NCBI GenBank assembly: GCA_048886185.1
Contig: JBHLKY010000003.1
Coordinates: 88,495-120,494, forward strand
Origin: Candidatus Hermodarchaeota archaeon
Lineage (GTDB): Archaea; Asgardarchaeota; Heimdallarchaeia; Hodarchaeales; Hodarchaeaceae
Direction of reading: 5' to 3'
Length of the DNA: 32,000 nucleotides
In this document: positions 4,589 to 21,428 of the stretch, in pieces
Layout: each line of letters begins with the position of its first letter
How positions within the stretch are numbered: the stretch's first letter is position 1
Program-made: the position numbers and the translations under genes
The notes under the pieces: model-generated
Told to the model about the DNA's origin: nothing
The model's database searches: none
Seen by the model: only the letters and a program-made list of their open reading frames with translations

Positions 4589-5998
4589 CTAAATTTTTCG
4601 TTTCTTGAATATAATAATCATAGTTGATAGGGATATTAAAACGGGGATAAGGCTTAATGCGTCCAAACTGCTAATGTGAAATCCAGGAATTTCCAATGAA
4701 GTTGGAGGTTCTGATGTATCTAAGCTAACACTGGTAAAAGATGGCTCTATTATCGGAGGATATTTAACCAACCAAAAGTCAAGATCACCGACTCCATATG
4801 AGTCAGTATCTCCTGCTATTGCAAATCCCCCATCTGTAGTTCGGATGATCGCATTACCACAGTCGTCATTCCATCCCCCATAAGTTTCATTCCATAGTGT
4901 TACACCTTTCCTAGTAGTTTTGATAAGCCATAAGTCAGAAAAACCAAGTCCACTTGATTGGGTTACACCGGTTATTATCGATCCCCCATTGGGAGTCTGG
5001 ATGAGATCATAACAATAATCGCAATTCCAACCTCCATACGACTTATTCCAGATTGTTGCTCCCTTGTCATCCGTTTTGACAAGCCAAAAATCAGAACAGC
5101 CATTGCTTAATGATGCTGACCCTGTATATCCAGCTAGTAAAAATCCGCCACCATTAGTCTGAGATAGGGCATTAGCGCTCTCTGGTTCAAGTCCTCCATA
5201 TGTTTTATTCCACATTATATTACCCTTAGCATCTGTCTTAACAAGCCAGAAATCCGCATTATTTGTTTCATAGTCAAATGAAGTTGTTGTGCCTGTTATT
5301 GCAAAACCACCATTAATAGTATGGAGGAGATCATAAGCCACTTCATAACCTGTTCCTCCATATGTTTTGTTCCACTCAATAATGCCCTTTTTATCTGTCT
5401 TAACCAACCAAAAATCACTATGACCAGCTCCAAAGGAATAAGTGGATCCTGCTAATATAAATCCCCCATCATCAGTACTAATAAGAGCTTGGGCTCTCTC
5501 AATGCTCGTACCTCCATATGTTTTATACCATTCTGTTTGTCCGTTCTTATCTGTCTTAATCAACAAAAAATCGTCTTGACCAGCTCCAAATGACTCAGTG
5601 TAACCTGCTAACACGAAACCACCGTCATAAGTTTGTAAAAGAGCCTCAATAATTTCATCTTCTGTGCCTCCATAAGTCTGATTCCATTCTTCGTTTCCAT
5701 TTGTGTCTGTTTTGATGAGCCAAAAATCCATATCACCAGCACTATAGGATCGTGTATAACCACCTATAGCGTAACCTCCATCGATAGTTTGGATTAATGC
5801 ACTTGCTTGATCTACGTCCCTCCCTCCAAAGGTTTTATACCACTTTATTTCTGGGGCATTCTGTTCTATCTTATAATTCCCAGATAATTCTTTAGGTGGT
5901 ATGACGTCAAACAACACAAGGGTGAAAGATAGAGAGACTAAAACCAAAATAATGGAAAATCTAATCTTCTTAATTAATAACAGCTTTATCACCATCAA
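4589..5998 (-). CDS. Secreted/surface beta-propeller repeat protein with PGF-type C-terminal sorting signal
   Basis: N-terminal hydrophobic signal, seven ~50-aa repeats W-x-K-T-Y-G-G...GG.....G.T.S...DFWLVKTD..G, a Ser/Thr/Pro linker, then IPGF, a hydrophobic helix and KKRKI. Confidence 0.85.
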   Translation of the reverse strand: MMVIKLLLIKKIRFSIILVLVSLSFTLVLFDVIPPKELSGNYKIEQNAPEIKWYKTFGGRDVDQASALIQTIDGGYAIGGYTRSYSAGDMDFWLIKTDTNGNEEWNQTYGGTEDEIIEALLQTYDGGFVLAGYTESFGAGQDDFLLIKTDKNGQTEWYKTYGGTSIERAQALISTDDGGFILAGSTYSFGAGHSDFWLVKTDKKGIIEWNKTYGGTGYEVAYDLLHTINGGFAITGTTTSFDYETNNADFWLVKTDAKGNIMWNKTYGGLEPESANALSQTNGGGFLLAGYTGSASLSNGCSDFWLVKTDDKGATIWNKSYGGWNCDYCYDLIQTPNGGSIITGVTQSSGLGFSDLWLIKTTRKGVTLWNETYGGWNDDCGNAIIRTTDGGFAIAGDTDSYGVGDLDFWLVKYPPIIEPSFTSVSLDTSEPPTSLEIPGFHISSLDALSLIPVLISLSTMIIIFKKRKI

Positions 5999-9738: not shown

Positions 9739-11907
9739 TTAAGGTGTAATTGCTCCTGGCGGAATAATATCCCAATTGATACGCCATATATATATCCAAT
9801 TATGTTCTGTTTTATACGCTAGTTCATAATAATTCGCATACTCAGCGTAATCATCAACGAAACCCTTTGTTGCAGGAGCATTATCTGTGATAGGAGCATA
9901 TTGCGTTATTCTACTAGAGTATGTCTCATCTGAGACCTCTGCTGTAAAGAGAGCCCAAAACACTGATTCATAGAATCGATTAACGTATCCCTGTATATAT
10001 TGGCCTCGGGAATCGTACTCAAGATAATCATCTTCGTCTATTTGGATTATATTACCATTAGCTTCCCCAATTCTGACAAACCATGGAACTTTACCAAGAT
10101 CAGAATCGAGTTGCCAATAACCATCGGACACTAATAGAACAATATAGGTTATATCATAGATATCCGCAATTTTAAGGGAGTCTTTTGGGTTGAGAACTAA
10201 CATACATCCAATATTACCAATTTTCGTCTTGTTAATTGTCGCATTGTCCACTAGAATAGTAGTATTAGAAATTCCACTAATCCAGTATCCATAGTCCCAC
10301 CAAGAAGCCACAACATCTGTTGGCCCAGCATTATAGTCTAACCAACTTATCGCTTCTTGCCAATCATATCCTAAAACAATTTGGGATTGATTTATTACTA
10401 CTGGAGTAGAGATTGAGGGAGCCTGTGTTGTCTTAATTGCTTGATCTATTGCTGTACCTATAAAGAAGAATATTATAATTCCAATAAATGCAAAAGCTAT
10501 TGCTGTCTGTTCATTAGATAATGGCTGTATAAAACGAGCTTTTCTTCGACTTAATGCGAATCGTTCTTGGAAGGCTAATACAAAAGGTAGAAGAGTTTGA
10601 TCAATCGCTTTTGCTGCAAGTAATGAAATAGCTGGAGCTAATATTAAAGCTAATCTTACCATGGAACCAGCGAAATATATTGCTGTCATGCCAAATAATA
10701 GTAGTAAAAGGTTCCTCTCAGTTGGTTTTTCATAAAGGTAGTAAAGGCTTAATGGTAAGAAAAAGATCAATAATCCTGTATTTCTAAAAAATGTTGCCCA
10801 TGTGACAATTTGATGTTCGCTAACTGACTTTAAAATTGGTGTTTGATCTCGATATATTGGTAGAAGTACAGTAACGAATTTTGAAGCTATATTGCTTAGA
10901 AATCCAGTAGAAAAGAGAACAACAATTCCCAAGACTGCAGCGACTCCAATAAAAGGAGCGATGGTTTTAAAACGTGCACGGAATCGTGTTGTGTCAGAAA
11001 AGGTATTAATATAACGATAAATTTCCATTATGGCTATTAAACCAAGAACACCTAAACCTGTTAAAGCATTTGAAGTTATGAGTGAATCTGGACCATTTCT
11101 CGGAATTAACATCATGATAAAGTATCCTATCAGGATTGATCCTCCATACGAAAGAAATAATCTATCTGAATGTTTCTTCATAACTAACAGAACTAATGCA
11201 TGAAGTGCTATTAAGTTGAAGACGTAAGTCGAAGCTCCCCATGAGCCAGATAGAATACCCAAGCATATTCCAGAAAGTATGGTCGAAGTAAGCGATCCTG
11301 TTCGTAAAGATCTTGCATAGAAATATAGCGCGAGGACAAGAAAAAGAATTCCTAGTGACTCGTGATCAAAAAATCCAACCACAGTTCTTTGAAGATGACC
11401 AGGGGAAATTACTAAGAAAAGGGCAGCCATTACTCCAATTTTCTTATTCCCTAGTTCTTTTCCCAAGAAGTATATTGCTACACATGTAAGCGCTCCCATA
11501 AGAGCTGGTTGATAATAGCAAATTATCCTTAGTGGGATATCTAAGCCTAAAAACATGGTTAATTGATGAATTAAGACTGCTGAGAGTGGGGTTCCAATAT
11601 ATTGATTTCGCCCCCAAAATCGGCCTTCAGGGTACCAAGTTTGTGTGTCGACCCAGCTAAAGAACTTGGCGAGACCATTTTCTTCAATGTATACTGCTGC
11701 ACGGTATTGGGAAAAAGGATCATTAGCTGTGAGGATAATTTCATATGAAGGTACATGAAGAGAGCCGAAGATTCTAACGAGGTAAGCTAAAATAAAAATT
11801 AATACAAGCGTAGTATAAAGTAAAACCATTTCTTTGTTAATTGATGTAGTAGCTGTATTATAGCGAGTTTTGAGGTCGTTTACAATTTTATCAATGAAAA
11901 CAGACAT
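9739..11907 (-). CDS. aglB: Oligosaccharyltransferase AglB / STT3
   Basis: Multiple TM segments, DP...YR, GFFDHE, SVSEHQ, WWDYG and DNAT motifs. Confidence 0.96.
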   Translation of the reverse strand: MSVFIDKIVNDLKTRYNTATTSINKEMVLLYTTLVLIFILAYLVRIFGSLHVPSYEIILTANDPFSQYRAAVYIEENGLAKFFSWVDTQTWYPEGRFWGRNQYIGTPLSAVLIHQLTMFLGLDIPLRIICYYQPALMGALTCVAIYFLGKELGNKKIGVMAALFLVISPGHLQRTVVGFFDHESLGILFLVLALYFYARSLRTGSLTSTILSGICLGILSGSWGASTYVFNLIALHALVLLVMKKHSDRLFLSYGGSILIGYFIMMLIPRNGPDSLITSNALTGLGVLGLIAIMEIYRYINTFSDTTRFRARFKTIAPFIGVAAVLGIVVLFSTGFLSNIASKFVTVLLPIYRDQTPILKSVSEHQIVTWATFFRNTGLLIFFLPLSLYYLYEKPTERNLLLLLFGMTAIYFAGSMVRLALILAPAISLLAAKAIDQTLLPFVLAFQERFALSRRKARFIQPLSNEQTAIAFAFIGIIIFFFIGTAIDQAIKTTQAPSISTPVVINQSQIVLGYDWQEAISWLDYNAGPTDVVASWWDYGYWISGISNTTILVDNATINKTKIGNIGCMLVLNPKDSLKIADIYDITYIVLLVSDGYWQLDSDLGKVPWFVRIGEANGNIIQIDEDDYLEYDSRGQYIQGYVNRFYESVFWALFTAEVSDETYSSRITQYAPITDNAPATKGFVDDYAEYANYYELAYKTEHNWIYIWRINWDIIPPGAITP

Positions 11908-12487: not shown

Positions 12488-13351
12488 ATGGTAGATATAA
12501 GCCGTTTGAAATCTTGGTCAAAACATTTAAGAGCTAGACGTGGAAATAAGATTTTTCTTCAAGCTGTAAAGATGTTTCATTATCATATAACTCCTTTCTC
12601 TGTACTATTACAGAGAATATGTGAAATTCTTGAGGAATTTGATGCTAAATTCACTTTTCCTCTTGTTGCATCAATAGCTCAATCTAATCCGACATTAGTT
12701 AAAAAGTTGAGATCTACTCCTCATGAAATTGCAATCCATGGCTATAAACACGTTCGATATCCATTCTTATCATTTAATCAACAATTATTTGAATTTAGAA
12801 AAGCTATTGAGATTTTTAGGGAGCTAAATATTCCTTTCGTAGGTTTTAGAGCCCCATATAACATCTATTCTGAGACTACTATTGAATTAATTGATAATTT
12901 TGGCTTTTTATGGGATGCAGGAATAGGATTTCGTCGTGATTATAGAGATGGTCATAAATTCTTTAAGGTTCCATTAAAAGATCGAAAAGTATCGTCTTAC
13001 ACCTGTATACCTCTATGTGAGTGGTCTGATGACCGTATGATTGATAATTATAAACTTTCATCAGAAAAAATGGCCAAAATATTAATCTATCATTTAGAGA
13101 AAGCTCGAAAGGTCAACGGGTTGATCATGTTTGATCTCCATCCAATAAGAATCGGGCAGAATCAATATATCAAGAGCTTAAAGCAGTTACTAATTCATGC
13201 AACGAAGATTGATGCGTGGGTTCCCACGGTGTCAGAGGCTGTGAATTATTGGTCAAAGCATCATCAATGGAAAGATTCTGCCCCCGTATGCTGTCTCCTT
13301 ACAGGAGATATTGATAACTTTACATTTTTTGATTATCTAAAAAGAATATGA
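12488..13351 (+). CDS. Polysaccharide deacetylase (CE4/NodB-like)
   Basis: KFTF, HEIAIHGYKH (metal His pair), GFRAPY and FDLHP motifs. A TGDID motif sits at the extreme C-terminus. Confidence 0.85.
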   Translation: MVDISRLKSWSKHLRARRGNKIFLQAVKMFHYHITPFSVLLQRICEILEEFDAKFTFPLVASIAQSNPTLVKKLRSTPHEIAIHGYKHVRYPFLSFNQQLFEFRKAIEIFRELNIPFVGFRAPYNIYSETTIELIDNFGFLWDAGIGFRRDYRDGHKFFKVPLKDRKVSSYTCIPLCEWSDDRMIDNYKLSSEKMAKILIYHLEKARKVNGLIMFDLHPIRIGQNQYIKSLKQLLIHATKIDAWVPTVSEAVNYWSKHHQWKDSAPVCCLLTGDIDNFTFFDYLKRI

Positions 13352-13361
13352 ACAGAAGGTT

Positions 13362-13862
13362 TTGGTTTTCTTGACTTATTGGTCTATAGGTATCGACATT
13401 GTAGAAATTCAACGTTTTAGGTCGTATCCATTACTAGATTACCCACGTTTTTATGAACGTGTTTTTGATGAATACGAATTTCAATATTGCACTCGTCATT
13501 CAGATCCCTATCCCCATTTTGCAGGAATTTTTGCAGGAAAAGAAGCGGTACTCAAAGCAATAAACAAACTTTTTCCCATCTCGCTTTCTGAAATTTCTAT
13601 TCATCATGATGAAACAGGAAGACCTGTTGTCTGGCTAGAAAAAAATGAAAACTCCCCAAAATCAAGAGAAAAATGGTTTATTAATAATCAGAATCTTGAA
13701 GTTCAAGTCACTATTACACACTCTAGTGACCTAGCGTTAGCATGGGCATTAATCTTTACAAATAATTCACGAAATGATCCATTTAGGATATTAGATAAGC
13801 TTAAAGCTGAATTGCAGCGAGAGATTGAGAATGAGTTCGTCGAGTATCGATGTACTACGTAA
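13362..13862 (+). CDS. acpS: Holo-[acyl-carrier-protein] synthase (4'-phosphopantetheinyl transferase)
   Basis: IGIDIVEI.RF, FAGIFAGKEAVLKA, GRP, and VTITHS..LA.A motifs. TTG start. Confidence 0.92.
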   Translation: MVFLTYWSIGIDIVEIQRFRSYPLLDYPRFYERVFDEYEFQYCTRHSDPYPHFAGIFAGKEAVLKAINKLFPISLSEISIHHDETGRPVVWLEKNENSPKSREKWFINNQNLEVQVTITHSSDLALAWALIFTNNSRNDPFRILDKLKAELQREIENEFVEYRCTT

Positions 13863-15687
13863 ACAGGATGAATTACTTGATTTAGTTAGGAAAAAGCCAA
13901 CTCACAGGAATTATTGGAACTCATACAAGAGGATCAGAAAATTAGATTTTTCTAATGTTGAGCTTTCCTCACAAGAACGTATTAACATAAGCTTGTTGAG
14001 TTCTTTCACAATAGATCCATTAGCAGTATATCTTGACATTGATTGTCGCTTATTAGGACTTTTTCCAGAGATTTATGTAGCACCCTTTAATAGATATCAT
14101 GAAGAGGTTCTCGATAAAGAAAGTGGCCTTTACAAATCAAAACCTGACTTAGTAATCTTTTTTATTAGAGTGGAGTCATTAATAGAAGATACATTCAGAG
14201 TAAAATATCCTCAAATGAAAACCAAACATATACAAACAGAAATTAATAGAATAATTCATGATATTAAACAACTATTAGCTCTGATAAATCAACAGAGTGA
14301 AGCAATAACTATTTTCAGTAATTTTGTTGTCCCCATGTTCTCTCCTTTTGGAATTTTAGATAATAAACAGCAAATTGGGTTTAAAGGCTTCTATAAATTA
14401 TTAAATCTAAGGCTTGAAGAGTCATTCCTGGATAATAATCAAAATTTCATCTTTAATCTAAATGAAGTTGCAAGTGGTTATGGAAAAGACAGATATATGA
14501 ATTATCAGATGAATTATCGGGGCTCAATATTTTTTAACGAACCATTCTTATCACGACTTTCTTACGAGTTAATGGGTTATGTCAAAGCACTCAAATCAAA
14601 AAATCGGAAATGTATTGTTCTAGATTTAGATAATACCCTTTGGGGTGGTATTATTGGAGAAGATGGACTAGAAGGCATTAAGCTTAACGTTAGCTATCCT
14701 GGTAACGAATTTGTCGACTTTCAGCGTTCTTTATTAAGCTTAAATAGCAAAGGTGTCATTTTAGCCATCAATAGCAAGAATAATCTTGATGATGCTCTAG
14801 AGGTTTTCCAGAAGCATCCTTACATGCAAATTAAGGAAAAAAACTTGGCAGCTTATCGTATTAACTGGAATGATAAAGTACAAAACCTTATTGAATTAGC
14901 TAAGGAGATAAATATAGGATTGGATAGCATAATATTTATTGATGATAATCCCGTTGAAAGGGCACGTGTACAGACTTCTCTTCCTGATGTACTCGTCTTG
15001 GATATGCCTTCTAGTCCTTTATTGTTTCGTAAAACTTTGGAAGAATTAAATGATTTTAATACCCTATCGCTTACAATAGAAGACCTCCATCGGAGTGAAA
15101 TGTATTATGCTAGACGCAAAAGACAGGATCTCGAACAGCATGTTCAATCCATGGAGGAATTTATAGAATCATTAGACATTGTTGCAATAATTAAACTAAC
15201 AGATAATTTTGTACTCCCACGTGTTACGAGTCTTCTGAACAGAACAAATCAATTTAATTTAACCACTAAGCGTTATACGGAATCTGAAGTTCAATATCTG
15301 CATTCTAATCCAGAGAAATATCTTATCTATACCGTACAAGTCCAGGATAAATTTGGTGATGAGGGAATTGTAGGTGTTGCTATAGTTGAAAAAGACTCAG
15401 TTGATAAATGGATTGTCGATAGTTTCCTTCTGAGTTGTAGGGTAATTGGTAGAAAAATCGAAACAGTTTTTCTCACAAAATTAATTAATGATGCTAAAAG
15501 TCAAAATGTAAAGGTACTTGAAGCAACATACATCCCGACTAAGAAAAATACATTAGTAAGTGACTTTTACTCCAAACATAGTTTTCAGTTGGTAAAAGAA
15601 TACCCTAATGGAGAGACACAGTGGGTACTCTCTTTAAGTGATTTTAATTTAGATTATCCTGAATATATTCGCGTTGTGGAAGAATGA
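13831..15687 (+). CDS. FkbH-like HAD-IIIC protein (glyceryl-ACP-forming enzyme family)
   Basis: N-terminal extension, HAD motif VLDLDNTLWGGIIGEDG (14623), SKNN, RINW.DK, FIDDNPVER, R...L..RTNQFNLTT, DKFGD.G, and SCRV (Cys 15436). It overlaps the acpS end. ATG 13831 is preferred to TTG 13825. Confidence 0.93.
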   Translation: MSSSSIDVLRKQDELLDLVRKKPTHRNYWNSYKRIRKLDFSNVELSSQERINISLLSSFTIDPLAVYLDIDCRLLGLFPEIYVAPFNRYHEEVLDKESGLYKSKPDLVIFFIRVESLIEDTFRVKYPQMKTKHIQTEINRIIHDIKQLLALINQQSEAITIFSNFVVPMFSPFGILDNKQQIGFKGFYKLLNLRLEESFLDNNQNFIFNLNEVASGYGKDRYMNYQMNYRGSIFFNEPFLSRLSYELMGYVKALKSKNRKCIVLDLDNTLWGGIIGEDGLEGIKLNVSYPGNEFVDFQRSLLSLNSKGVILAINSKNNLDDALEVFQKHPYMQIKEKNLAAYRINWNDKVQNLIELAKEINIGLDSIIFIDDNPVERARVQTSLPDVLVLDMPSSPLLFRKTLEELNDFNTLSLTIEDLHRSEMYYARRKRQDLEQHVQSMEEFIESLDIVAIIKLTDNFVLPRVTSLLNRTNQFNLTTKRYTESEVQYLHSNPEKYLIYTVQVQDKFGDEGIVGVAIVEKDSVDKWIVDSFLLSCRVIGRKIETVFLTKLINDAKSQNVKVLEATYIPTKKNTLVSDFYSKHSFQLVKEYPNGETQWVLSLSDFNLDYPEYIRVVEE

Positions 15688-15932
15688 TGGTTAATACACA
15701 GGCAATATTCGAAGATATTGTTTCTAAAATACTTTTATTGGAAAAAAATCAATTAAATGACGATATCTCAAGAGATGACCTTGAAGAATGGGATTCTATG
15801 ACTCATCTAGCGTTAATTTCAGAGTTAGAGCAAGCTTTTGACATAATTCTTTCTGATGATGAAGTTACCGAAATCAAGACTATTGGTGATGTTAAAAGAA
15901 CCTTAATCAAGCACAAAATTAAAATTCTGTAA
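15684..15932 (+). CDS. Acyl carrier protein
   Basis: 82-aa acidic protein with WDSM attachment motif (Ser38, 15795-15797) and ELEQAFDI. ATGA overlap with the FkbH stop. Confidence 0.9.
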   Translation: MMVNTQAIFEDIVSKILLLEKNQLNDDISRDDLEEWDSMTHLALISELEQAFDIILSDDEVTEIKTIGDVKRTLIKHKIKIL

Positions 15933-15999
15933 TTTTTTTCTTCGAAAGAAATTCATTAAGTGGAATCTTATGTAAGTAGACCACAAGAAGATATAATTT

Positions 16000-16407
16000 C
16001 TATAATTCTAGAAATTCTAGAAGATAATGGGTCGGTGTCCAAACAAAAGCTATTCGGCGGCCATTAAAAAGCGCTGAAGGTGTTGGACGGAGTGCAATTA
16101 CAGCATGGTTTTCCCGTGCTTTCTTAAGTGCTTCTTCTAGGCCTGGTACCTCTATACAATAGTGGTACAAGTGATTATTTTGCTTTAATATTTGATCAAT
16201 AGTGGATGGTGATTCAGTTGGTTCTACTAATTCAAGTAAGCAGTTTTCAGACGATTGACCGTTGATAGCTAGAAGAACTACCTTTACTTTCAATCTTTTG
16301 TCATCAATAACATTACTTACTTGCTTCATACCTAATGCTTGAATATGAAATCCTAAGCTTTCTTCAATTGAGTTAACAGCAACACCGACATGGTGAATTT
16401 TGGTCAT
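16000..16407 (-). CDS. VOC-fold protein, methylmalonyl-CoA epimerase-like
   Basis: IHHVGVAV, LLELVEP, LYHYCIEV and LLEFLE supply the H/E/H/E metal-ligand pattern of VOC enzymes. Confidence 0.8.
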   Translation of the reverse strand: MTKIHHVGVAVNSIEESLGFHIQALGMKQVSNVIDDKRLKVKVVLLAINGQSSENCLLELVEPTESPSTIDQILKQNNHLYHYCIEVPGLEEALKKARENHAVIALRPTPSALFNGRRIAFVWTPTHYLLEFLEL

Positions 16408-16415
16408 AAGTTATT

Positions 16416-16883
16416 TCATCCTTTTGATGACACTTCATTTGGTTTTGGTAATTTTGAAACCACTCGAGCTGGATTACCTGCAGCGATATTAAAATCTGGA
16501 ATATTTCGATTGACAACAGCGCCAGCAGCTATGATTGAGCCTTCTCCAATTGTCACTCCTGGGAGAATAATAGCCCCAGACCCAATCCATGCTCCTCGTT
16601 TGATAAGTACCGCCTGTGATGGTTGTTTAAAGATCTTTGTTTGGTGGTGATATGGACTTCCACCTGAATGAGCTAGAATTGAAACAAGAGGGCCAATACT
16701 GACATCATCTTCTAGTGTAATTAAATGTGGGTATTCTCCGTCAAAAAAGACTAAATTTCCTATATATACTCGTTTTCCAATCTTCACACCGCATTTACGC
16801 CATATACTTGCCCTAAATTGGTATATAGGTGCAATCCAAGCAAGAATGCGAAGAAGTCTTCCTATAACTCGACCCAATGACAA
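16416..16883 (-). CDS. Left-handed beta-helix (hexapeptide repeat) acyltransferase
   Basis: GVKIGKRVYIG, ITLEDDVSIGP..SILAH, VLIKRGAWIGSGAIILPGVTIGEGSIIAAGAVV and AAGNPARV. Confidence 0.9.
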   Translation of the reverse strand: MSLGRVIGRLLRILAWIAPIYQFRASIWRKCGVKIGKRVYIGNLVFFDGEYPHLITLEDDVSIGPLVSILAHSGGSPYHHQTKIFKQPSQAVLIKRGAWIGSGAIILPGVTIGEGSIIAAGAVVNRNIPDFNIAAGNPARVVSKLPKPNEVSSKG

Positions 16884-20342: not shown

Positions 20343-21428
20343 ATGACTCCTGACATTCTGGCCGAAGAACAGTTAAAATTAGAGTTGATACGTGTTCTAA
20401 CCAGATTTTTTTTAAGCCATCTCGAAGAGTTGGTGAGAAACCAATCAGGAGCCTTTTTTCCAATCGAAAAAATTGAGAATGTAAAATTAGGAAAGAGATT
20501 AGGAAGACGAAAAGAATTGCAACTAATGACTGTTGAAGTTGTTGATTCGTTACAGAACAGAAAATACAATGTTGATCTTGCATTCAAATTTTTAAATGAT
20601 CCCGAAATGGCAATAAAAGAAGGAAATGGAGCCGTATGGTTGGGAGATGTTTTAAAAAATAATGTGAAAGTTCAGACACCCTCTCTACTTTATTTTTCTC
20701 ATGAAAATTCCTTATTGATATATGAAGGTCTTAGAGAACCTCTTGAATTCTTTGATAGTGAACTTGATCAACCACAGAAGTTTTTCTTGGCAGGATTGGC
20801 ATTACCTTATGTCCACGGAATTTTTAAACATAAAGTTTTAGTTGATAGATATTTACATCTGATATCAGAGGTGGTTAAGGGTTTAGCTCTTGCCCCTGGA
20901 GATAAGAATGATCTTTTTTTTCTTTTTAAAGGAGATCTTCGTCGTGTTGGATTAAGTAGCGCAGGTGCTAATTGTTTTGGTGATTATCATCCTGGAAATA
21001 TAATGTTTAGGGAAAAAGAAGTATCATCAAGCAATACTGGAGATTTAAAAATTGATCGTACAGAAATATTTCTGATAGATCCTGCATATTTGGATAGAGA
21101 GGGGAATGTCGATCGTGCCGAAGATATTGGTACATTTTTCTCTAAATTTGCATATAATGACTTTTATCTTTCTCAATCATTTGATAAAACAATATCTGAA
21201 TTTGAAATTATTTGTAAAGGATATGATTACACAATCTCCCAAAATGGGATCACCCTGGAGGAATTTTATCCTGAAGGTACAACATTTGACTTTCACATTG
21301 CTCTAGGAATTTTAATTGATGCAATGTTTAAAGTACGTAATCCAAAGTTCATAAATCCCCAAGCTAGGCTCCAATCAAGCTTAGAAGCGGCGAAATACAT
21401 CTTGAAAAAACATCCATTTGAGATTTGA
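20343..21428 (+). CDS. Protein-kinase-like phosphotransferase (APH/choline kinase superfamily), substrate unknown
   Basis: LAFK (beta3 Lys), GDYHPGNIMF catalytic loop and IFLIDPA metal-binding loop. Confidence 0.75.
   Translation: MTPDILAEEQLKLELIRVLTRFFLSHLEELVRNQSGAFFPIEKIENVKLGKRLGRRKELQLMTVEVVDSLQNRKYNVDLAFKFLNDPEMAIKEGNGAVWLGDVLKNNVKVQTPSLLYFSHENSLLIYEGLREPLEFFDSELDQPQKFFLAGLALPYVHGIFKHKVLVDRYLHLISEVVKGLALAPGDKNDLFFLFKGDLRRVGLSSAGANCFGDYHPGNIMFREKEVSSSNTGDLKIDRTEIFLIDPAYLDREGNVDRAEDIGTFFSKFAYNDFYLSQSFDKTISEFEIICKGYDYTISQNGITLEEFYPEGTTFDFHIALGILIDAMFKVRNPKFINPQARLQSSLEAAKYILKKHPFEI

Follow-up and report, generated by a model that had tools for sequence, protein, structure and literature searches.

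A VOC-fold protein and a left-handed beta-helix acyltransferase associated with an FkbH/ACP module in Asgard archaea

FkbH domains load D-1,3-bisphosphoglycerate and dephosphorylate it to D-glyceryl-S-ACP (PMC8949500, PMC10099666). The FK520 FkbH protein, the FkbH domains of vioprolide, cystomanamide and corramycin, and the tetronate clusters all have, as the locus described here does, a TIGR01686 FkbH with a dedicated acyl carrier protein (ACP) and a phosphopantetheinyl transferase (PPTase). On the other hand, the module we describe has an archaeal host, is without PKS, NRPS, ketosynthase and FkbK/FkbI, and carries a CE4-type gene, a left-handed beta-helix (LbH) acyltransferase gene and, optionally, a gene for a VOC-fold protein. 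In the flagellin-glycan locus of Campylobacter jejuni 11168, the 'epimerase' gene cj1301 adjoins the fkbH-domain gene cj1302, and the flagellin carries a dimethylglyceric-acid pseudaminic acid (PMC7099621). This is an annotated epimerase beside fkbH, as here, likened by annotation and position alone; the Campylobacter glycan is a bacterial O-glycan, and the paper assayed neither gene product. Papers on Tannerella call the genes for N-glyceroyl sugars 'elusive' and 'a major challenge' (PMC6120980, PMC5378307). Among bacteria with solved glycans, Pragia fontium 97U124 has glyceroyl of the D configuration (PMC10609480).

Our literature search, which took in few subscription papers, returned no paper on FkbH with a glyoxalase or on a VOC-FkbH link, none on an Asgard phosphopantetheinyl ACP pathway, and nothing useful on L-glyceroyl sugars. 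To our knowledge, a glyceroyl group has yet to be described on any Asgard glycan.

The locus and its gene parts

We analysed a window of 32,000 nucleotides (the whole stretch of DNA) from a Hodarchaeales contig, with the following features:

9739..11907, minus strand: AglB/STT3 oligosaccharyltransferase, context only, a neighbour of the module in several lineages
12488..13351, plus strand: CE4/NodB-type deacetylase-like protein, module core gene, with a TxDxD-like motif at the C-terminus
13362..13862, plus strand: AcpS-type phosphopantetheinyl transferase
13825..15687, plus strand: FkbH-type loader with an FkbH_N domain (TIGR01686; DLDNTLW at 267, SCRV at 537)
15684..15932, plus strand: acyl carrier protein (PP-binding), WDSM motif, Ser38
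15933..15999, no strand: gap of 67 nt between the converging stop codons of the ACP and VOC genes, opening with a run of seven T
16000..16407, minus strand: VOC-fold metalloenzyme of the FkbH-associated subfamily, putative optional tailoring step (135 aa; PF13669)
16416..16883, minus strand: short LbH acyltransferase, module core gene (155 aa; Pfam Hexapep)
16737..16739, minus strand: codon (GGA) of LbH Gly49, the putative pocket position that tracks the VOC gene

The VOC and LbH reading frames of the original prediction were found exactly where it had placed them, on the minus strand, and they converge on the ACP gene (end 15932) over the 67-nt gap. They do adjoin each other, as was claimed, but the 9 nt given as their distance is a coordinate difference, and the real spacer has 8 bases (AAGTTATT). 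The LbH reading frame starts with TTG; a second TTG at 16877 matches the 'MGR..' start of many orthologues, and the true start may be this one, two codons inside. In Pfam, the VOC protein matches Glyoxalase_4 (E 1.6e-12) and the LbH protein Hexapep (E 7e-15). Upstream on the plus strand lie the CE4-like, AcpS, FkbH and ACP genes, and further out aglB, PolD DP1 and cdc6.

The FkbH protein scores 305 bits on TIGR01686 (cut-off 146.65), and the marks of its family were all found here, namely the score, the DxD and SCRV motifs with the conserved Cys, an adjacent ACP with the Ser motif, and a PPTase. FkbH is single copy and the ACP is the sole PP-binding match in the genome, with a WDSM motif that is invariant in the alignment. 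Enzymes of the AcpS family prime ACPs. The original prediction also held that the window has no MBOAT-type transferase, which was borne out, since a profile search for PF03062 found none either in the window or elsewhere in the genome, which is 96% complete; Dlt-like, MBOAT-dependent acylation was rejected on this result. A scan for sigma-70 promoters and terminators gave counts at chance level, with a sigma-70 model ill-suited to archaea.

Three other reading frames in the window deserve mention. The CE4-like protein (12488-13351) has its TGDID motif among the final 20 residues rather than close to the N-terminus, and from its sequence it looks circularly permuted. A 361-aa reading frame (20343-21428), kept in 9 Hodarchaeales loci, and one of 469 aa (4589-5998) have no Pfam match.

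Distribution of the module in archaea and bacteria

The VOC and LbH genes belong to a CE4-AcpS-FkbH-ACP module found in archaea, among them Hodarchaeales and Thorarchaeota. The module of CE4, AcpS, FkbH, ACP and LbH is kept through about eight archaeal gene orders and its neighbourhood also recurs in many bacteria; thus, it is not a chance neighbourhood. FkbH lies within 1.5 kb of LbH in 48 of the 52 archaeal loci, while the other four keep LbH with VOC, and the CE4 gene is present in 51/53 loci. Among the matches listed, only 2 of 75 loci of more distantly related LbH proteins have an FkbH gene in the vicinity. The two genes had been taken for a unit; they are indeed linked at many loci, but the unit is not obligate, LbH being a fixed part of the module and VOC an optional one. 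The aglB gene is found next to the module in Hodarchaeales, LC_3, Kariarchaeaceae and a MAG labelled Nitrososphaerota, an adjacency that was not seen in Thorarchaeota or in family f7. No other transferase family and no reductase was found to be conserved in the archaeal module.

Several archaeal loci depart from the common arrangement or extend it. One contig labelled Nitrososphaerota (L188, GCA_033581255.1) holds the whole module with VOC and LbH Gly49, beside aglB and GT4 genes. In one Thorarchaeota genome (G364, L077:7682-10254), AcpS, FkbH, ACP, LbH and half of CE4 are missing while VOC is left, so that the module appears deleted. At four other loci (L075, L076, L078 and L072, in G356, G346, G353 and G049), LbH and VOC stand together, apart from AcpS-FkbH-ACP, in three of them with CE4 too; FkbH was located elsewhere in G353 and G049, and not found in G346 or G356. 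Counting G364, three genomes thus have a VOC gene but no FkbH that could be located. At L073:2087-2995 and in Thorarchaeota equivalents, an LbH paralogue of about 300 aa with a hydrophobic N-terminus is encoded a short distance of a few genes away from the module, and its neighbours are a gene of about 410 aa that is reductase-like by its sequence, a ThrRS editing domain and a helicase.

Bacterial genomes were scanned with a narrower bacterial VOC alignment, biased to Acidobacteriota and Proteobacteria, and the 80 matches listed comprised 29 loci of the subfamily and 51 controls. The former score at least 100 bits, and the latter, which resemble methylmalonyl-CoA epimerase (MCE), at most 72. 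Among the matches listed, FkbH lies within 10 kb of VOC in 25/29 subfamily loci versus 1/51 of these lower-scoring controls, and an ACP gene does so in 24/29 versus 1/51; at loci of at least 15 kb, FkbH was near the subfamily VOC in every case (21/21). VOC-FkbH fusions occur in six clusters, and an LbH-VOC fusion in one, within an operon of the order LbH-VOC, FkbH, ACP (L102:6494-10921); a 384-aa gene without a Pfam match precedes this fusion, and the operon is flanked by very large genes. The slot beside bacterial FkbH-ACP-VOC is taken by LbH in 10 loci and by FemAB/GNAT or AAC(3)-type enzymes in others, again among the matches listed. FemAB/GNAT and AAC(3) are families of N-acyltransferases. 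One bacterial plasmid locus carries an MBOAT and an LbH gene together, bacterial versions of the module sit among glycosyltransferases, and many FkbH loci are without VOC.

Co-occurrence with FkbH and ACP, which the original prediction had named among its checks, is therefore seen for both genes, for VOC in bacteria and for LbH in archaea by the counts above, and the case in which neither would travel with them is excluded. The combination of a chance neighbourhood and a housekeeping MCE is largely refuted by this co-occurrence. We consider it highly probable that VOC and LbH both act in the FkbH/ACP pathway.

Sequence, structure and linked variation of the two proteins

Across about 145 diverse representatives, the metal ligands of the VOC protein, H6, E59, H82 and E131, are conserved at 97-100%, and the same alignment gives D36, S68, C84 (in YHxC), F114 and R117 as residues of the subfamily. 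Its scores lie below the cut-offs for both the MCE model TIGR03081 (54.5 bits, cut-off 114.95) and the glyoxalase I model TIGR00068 (24.9 bits, cut-off 120). The nearest solved relative is 3HDP of Clostridium acetobutylicum, by sequence (100 bits versus 66 for the next structure) as well as by fold (Z 20.2 and rmsd 1.5 A over 129 residues; next structure Z 17.7). An ESM Atlas search with the VOC protein returned generic VOC clusters only. The FkbH-associated, 3HDP-like subfamily has no curated model, and we assign the protein to it by the score gap from MCE, the D36/S68/YHxC/F114/R117 signature and an FkbH gene about 0.3 kb away. Across 400 Asgard genomes this subfamily forms a separate score band, with 31 genomes at 69 bits or more and the rest at 51 or less. 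One further member of the subfamily (P0352) is a 572-aa fusion with a radical-SAM/SPASM domain.

MCE had been put forward as the model for the VOC protein, and in part this stands. The structures 6WF6 (S. coelicolor) and 3RMU/6QH4 (human) share with it the VOC fold and an intra-subunit site (Z 17.2 and 15.9), the human enzyme has the same H/E/H/E ligands, and by analogy the VOC protein probably carries out a thioester C2 inversion of the same type. The nearest solved relative, however, is the Clostridium 'glyoxalase I', which has the H/E/H/E set, D36, YHxC and R117 at about 30% identity and belongs to the same subfamily. This enzyme (2QH0/3HDP) was reported as glyoxalase I by Suttisansanee et al. 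2011, as cited in PMC5412262. The gene context of the VOC protein here points to an ACP-bound substrate.

Unlike MCE, the VOC protein is not linked to a mutase gene, and in all 5 Thorarchaeota tested, a canonical MCE (165-169 bits) is encoded elsewhere, besides the FkbH-linked VOC (62-68 bits). A housekeeping MCE identity was rejected on these two points and on the TIGR03081 score. In Hodarchaeales, a methylmalonyl-CoA mutase-family gene occurs in 20 of 22 genomes and the FkbH-associated VOC in 7 of 22, always beside FkbH. None of the 22 has a VOC protein over the MCE cut-off, which leaves room for a side role of the VOC protein. The mutase-family gene of the source genome is at G000:C8:192946-194487.

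Among Asgard genomes, 52 others encode orthologues of the LbH protein at 49-90% identity, set apart from lower-scoring matches by a clear gap. R24, D48, H72 and W99 are invariant in the alignment, two N-terminal helices precede the beta-helix, and the structure model has a pLDDT of 90.6. In bits, with cut-offs in brackets, it scores 66 (192) on WcaF, 62.5 (300) on YvoF (NF058585), 61 (347) on GAT and 54 (314) on MAT. GAT/MAT/WcaF/YvoF enzymes (LacA 1KQA, SACOL2570 3FTT, NF058585) are thus its best sequence matches, but the gene here is tied to an ACP and its scores are far below their cut-offs. The nucleotide-sugar N-acyltransferases PglD, WbpD, QdtC and AntD have the LbH fold in common with it. 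PglD/WbpD, the model chosen by the original prediction, does not hold: the protein of 155 aa lacks the N-terminal alpha/beta domain of PglD, it scores 54.9 bits on the PglD/NeuD model TIGR03570 (cut-off 160.8), and a PglD-type assignment was rejected. By sequence, it is GAT/MAT/WcaF/YvoF-like rather than PglD-like. Fold search does not separate O- from N-acyltransferases, as QdtC, AntD, FdtD and Pcryo_0619 reach the same Z of 15-17 as O-acetyltransferases. Trp99 corresponds to GAT Trp139, so that the CoA-stacking Trp is kept, D48/G49 fall on the D92/D93 turn of GAT, and the invariant His72 aligns with Thr113 of GAT, whose catalytic His115 comes two residues later. All solved close relatives are acetyl-CoA enzymes.

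LpxA and LpxD are LbH enzymes able to use ACP donors, and they are not among the close matches. A complex of the LbH trimer with the ACP was predicted with a score of 0.46 versus 0.00 for the best control, with at least 87% of contacts agreeing between runs and a partner pLDDT of at least 80. In calibration, the mark was reached by 58/80 solved and 2/110 mismatched pairs, but those reaching it with a score no higher than 0.60 were just 7 of the solved pairs and both of the mismatched ones. Since structures of LpxA/LpxD with ACP exist, the score may in part reflect what the predictor learnt from them. The prediction lends weak support to binding of the ACP by the LbH trimer.

Residue 49 of the LbH protein, beside the invariant Asp48, tracks the presence of the VOC gene. 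All 34 loci with VOC have Gly at this position, and 27 of the 30 without it have Ser or Ala (64 loci). This residue ranks top of 1,267 columns (phi 0.91 versus 0.72 for the next), and FkbH, ACP, AcpS and CE4 have no column that tracks VOC in this way (best phi 0.66). The pattern was first seen in both Hodarchaeales and Thorarchaeota. Independent pairs on a tree of CE4 and FkbH proteins gave 6 changes in the same direction, 0 opposite and 2 unchanged (p ~0.03), a value that is optimistic because the residue was chosen after the column scan; the tree was a quick one, and short contigs underlie two of the VOC-less contrasts. For six unseen contigs, VOC was predicted from residue 49, and four with Gly (in four gene orders) had VOC while two with Ser had none, the two Ser look-ups belonging to already known VOC-less clades. 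A seventh contig had Ala and no VOC, so that 7/7 fit, six of them predicted beforehand. The exceptions are three Thorarchaeota with Gly49 and no VOC, and as they are nested among VOC-bearing relatives, they fit a recent loss of VOC.

Read without a gap, the alignment with GAT places residue 49 in the register of Asp93, one of the GAT residues listed at 4 A or less from the ligands (PMC12775004). By this register, residue 49 would lie in the acceptor pocket of the LbH enzyme. Its VOC-linked switch ties LbH and VOC to one substrate, and we think it likely that VOC alters the unit that LbH handles.

Proposed pathway and alternative readings

Starting from D-glyceryl-S-ACP, the VOC enzyme would chelate the C1 carbonyl and the C2 hydroxyl of the ACP-tethered glyceryl, and E59 and E131 would take and return the C2 proton via an enediolate, giving L-glyceryl-S-ACP. 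A 2-hydroxy thioester epimerase would share its enediolate with glyoxalase I, one glutamate standing on each face, and this common intermediate would explain the glyoxalase activity of the Clostridium relative. The LbH trimer would then use the ACP as donor and move glyceroyl to an amino sugar, the amine of which would probably be freed by the CE4 enzyme, and the glyceroyl-bearing glycan would be transferred to protein by AglB. Lineages with VOC and LbH Gly49 would thereby make L-glyceroyl glycans, and VOC-less lineages with Ser49 D-glyceroyl glycans. A step that is optional, as expected of a stereo-switch, and that changes only one pocket residue elsewhere in the pathway fits a change of handedness. 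C2 epimerisation has about even chances of being the change made by VOC. That LbH is a glyceryl-ACP-dependent transferase is slightly favoured, and whether the acceptor is the amino sugar of an N-glycan seems to us evenly balanced. As for the whole chain, in which D-to-L epimerisation of glyceryl-ACP is followed by transfer to an amino sugar, we infer it with somewhat less than even confidence.

The LbH enzyme could instead tailor the ACP-bound glyceryl (D or L according to VOC), O-acetylating it with acetyl-CoA, while the FkbH_N domain or an unlinked enzyme performs the transfer. Its closest sequences are indeed O-acetyltransferases that use acetyl-CoA, among them the YvoF family, which acetylates a glyceryl lipid, an LbH gene stands beside an MBOAT gene in one bacterial module, and the score of the ACP-LbH complex fits equally; moreover, as the GAT residue aligned with residue 49 belongs to the acceptor pocket, an ACP-bound glyceryl as the acceptor fits equally well. 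Nevertheless, we regard this as unlikely, given that no transferase family other than LbH persists in the archaeal module, that the same bacterial slot alternates LbH with AAC(3) and FemAB-type N-acyltransferases, and that a core CE4 gene suggests a free amine awaiting acylation. The core CE4 gene speaks equally against a lipid acceptor, where LbH, held by its N-terminal helices, would put glyceryl on an archaeal ether lipid or a lipid-linked intermediate, as do the adjacency of AglB in four lineages and the glycosyltransferases around the bacterial versions. The similarity to YvoF, the conserved basic and hydrophobic helices at the LbH N-terminus, and the reductase-like gene and membrane LbH paralogue near the Thorarchaeota module agree with a lipid, which we still find distinctly improbable.

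For the VOC enzyme, a different enediolate reaction could be envisaged, either elimination from (3-phospho)glyceryl-ACP to pyruvoyl-ACP or the joining of methylglyoxal and the phosphopantetheine thiol to lactoyl-ACP, with LbH transferring the product. An H/E/H/E site supports elimination and glyoxalase-type reactions too, the closest solved relative goes by the name glyoxalase I, and a changed acyl group would equally explain the residue-49 switch. Yet the module has no conserved reductase, the methylglyoxal route would need no FkbH while six clusters have VOC-FkbH fusions, and the dimethylglyceric acid of Campylobacter jejuni 11168 (PMC7099621; cj1301 likened by annotation) indicates that the three-carbon diol survives; we give such a reaction only a minor chance. 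Least probable by far, and hardly credible to us, is that the genes are incidental neighbours, VOC being an ordinary MCE or methylglyoxal glyoxalase and LbH an unrelated acetyl-CoA sugar acetyltransferase. The source genome does have a mutase and no VOC over the MCE cut-off, and database names often say MCE; this reading is opposed by the score of 54.5 versus 115 bits, the separate MCE of the Thorarchaeota, a VOC gene that follows FkbH and not the mutase, the fusions, the 25/29 versus 1/51 among the matches listed, and the residue-49 switch.

The epimerase-and-transferase pathway thus preferred consists of known component families and known glyceryl-ACP chemistry; what is new is the controlled co-occurrence count, the core or optional status of LbH and VOC, and the residue-49 switch. 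In its broadest and most tentative form, which we rather doubt, a long-conserved Asgard thiotemplate pathway would N-glyceroylate protein glycans, their handedness being set by the presence of a hitherto unassigned 2-hydroxyacyl-ACP epimerase together with a single Gly/Ser change in an ACP-dependent LbH enzyme, a switch thrown repeatedly; the VOC subfamily, including the Clostridium 'glyoxalase I', would then be the missing stereo-inverting step for bacterial glyceroyl sugars. If true, this would define the role of a VOC subfamily whose members often carry the wrong name of MCE or glyoxalase and the profile of which has over 2,000 matches at E 1e-10 (an upper bound that includes MCEs), and would show glycans being modified by an ACP-dependent route in the closest archaeal relatives of eukaryotes. 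The module offers candidate enzymes for the decoration of sugars with N-glyceroyl groups, all small and soluble, and its archaeal version is minimal, with five or six genes and no membrane transferase. Sister genomes with and without VOC, each with the matching LbH residue, provide a ready natural comparison.

In its ORF clusters, a second Asgard FkbH clade (240-266 bits; L094-L098 in G011, G028, G342, G074 and G019) is accompanied by none of the module genes, and each time it is preceded by a membrane-like gene of about 305 aa without a Pfam match.
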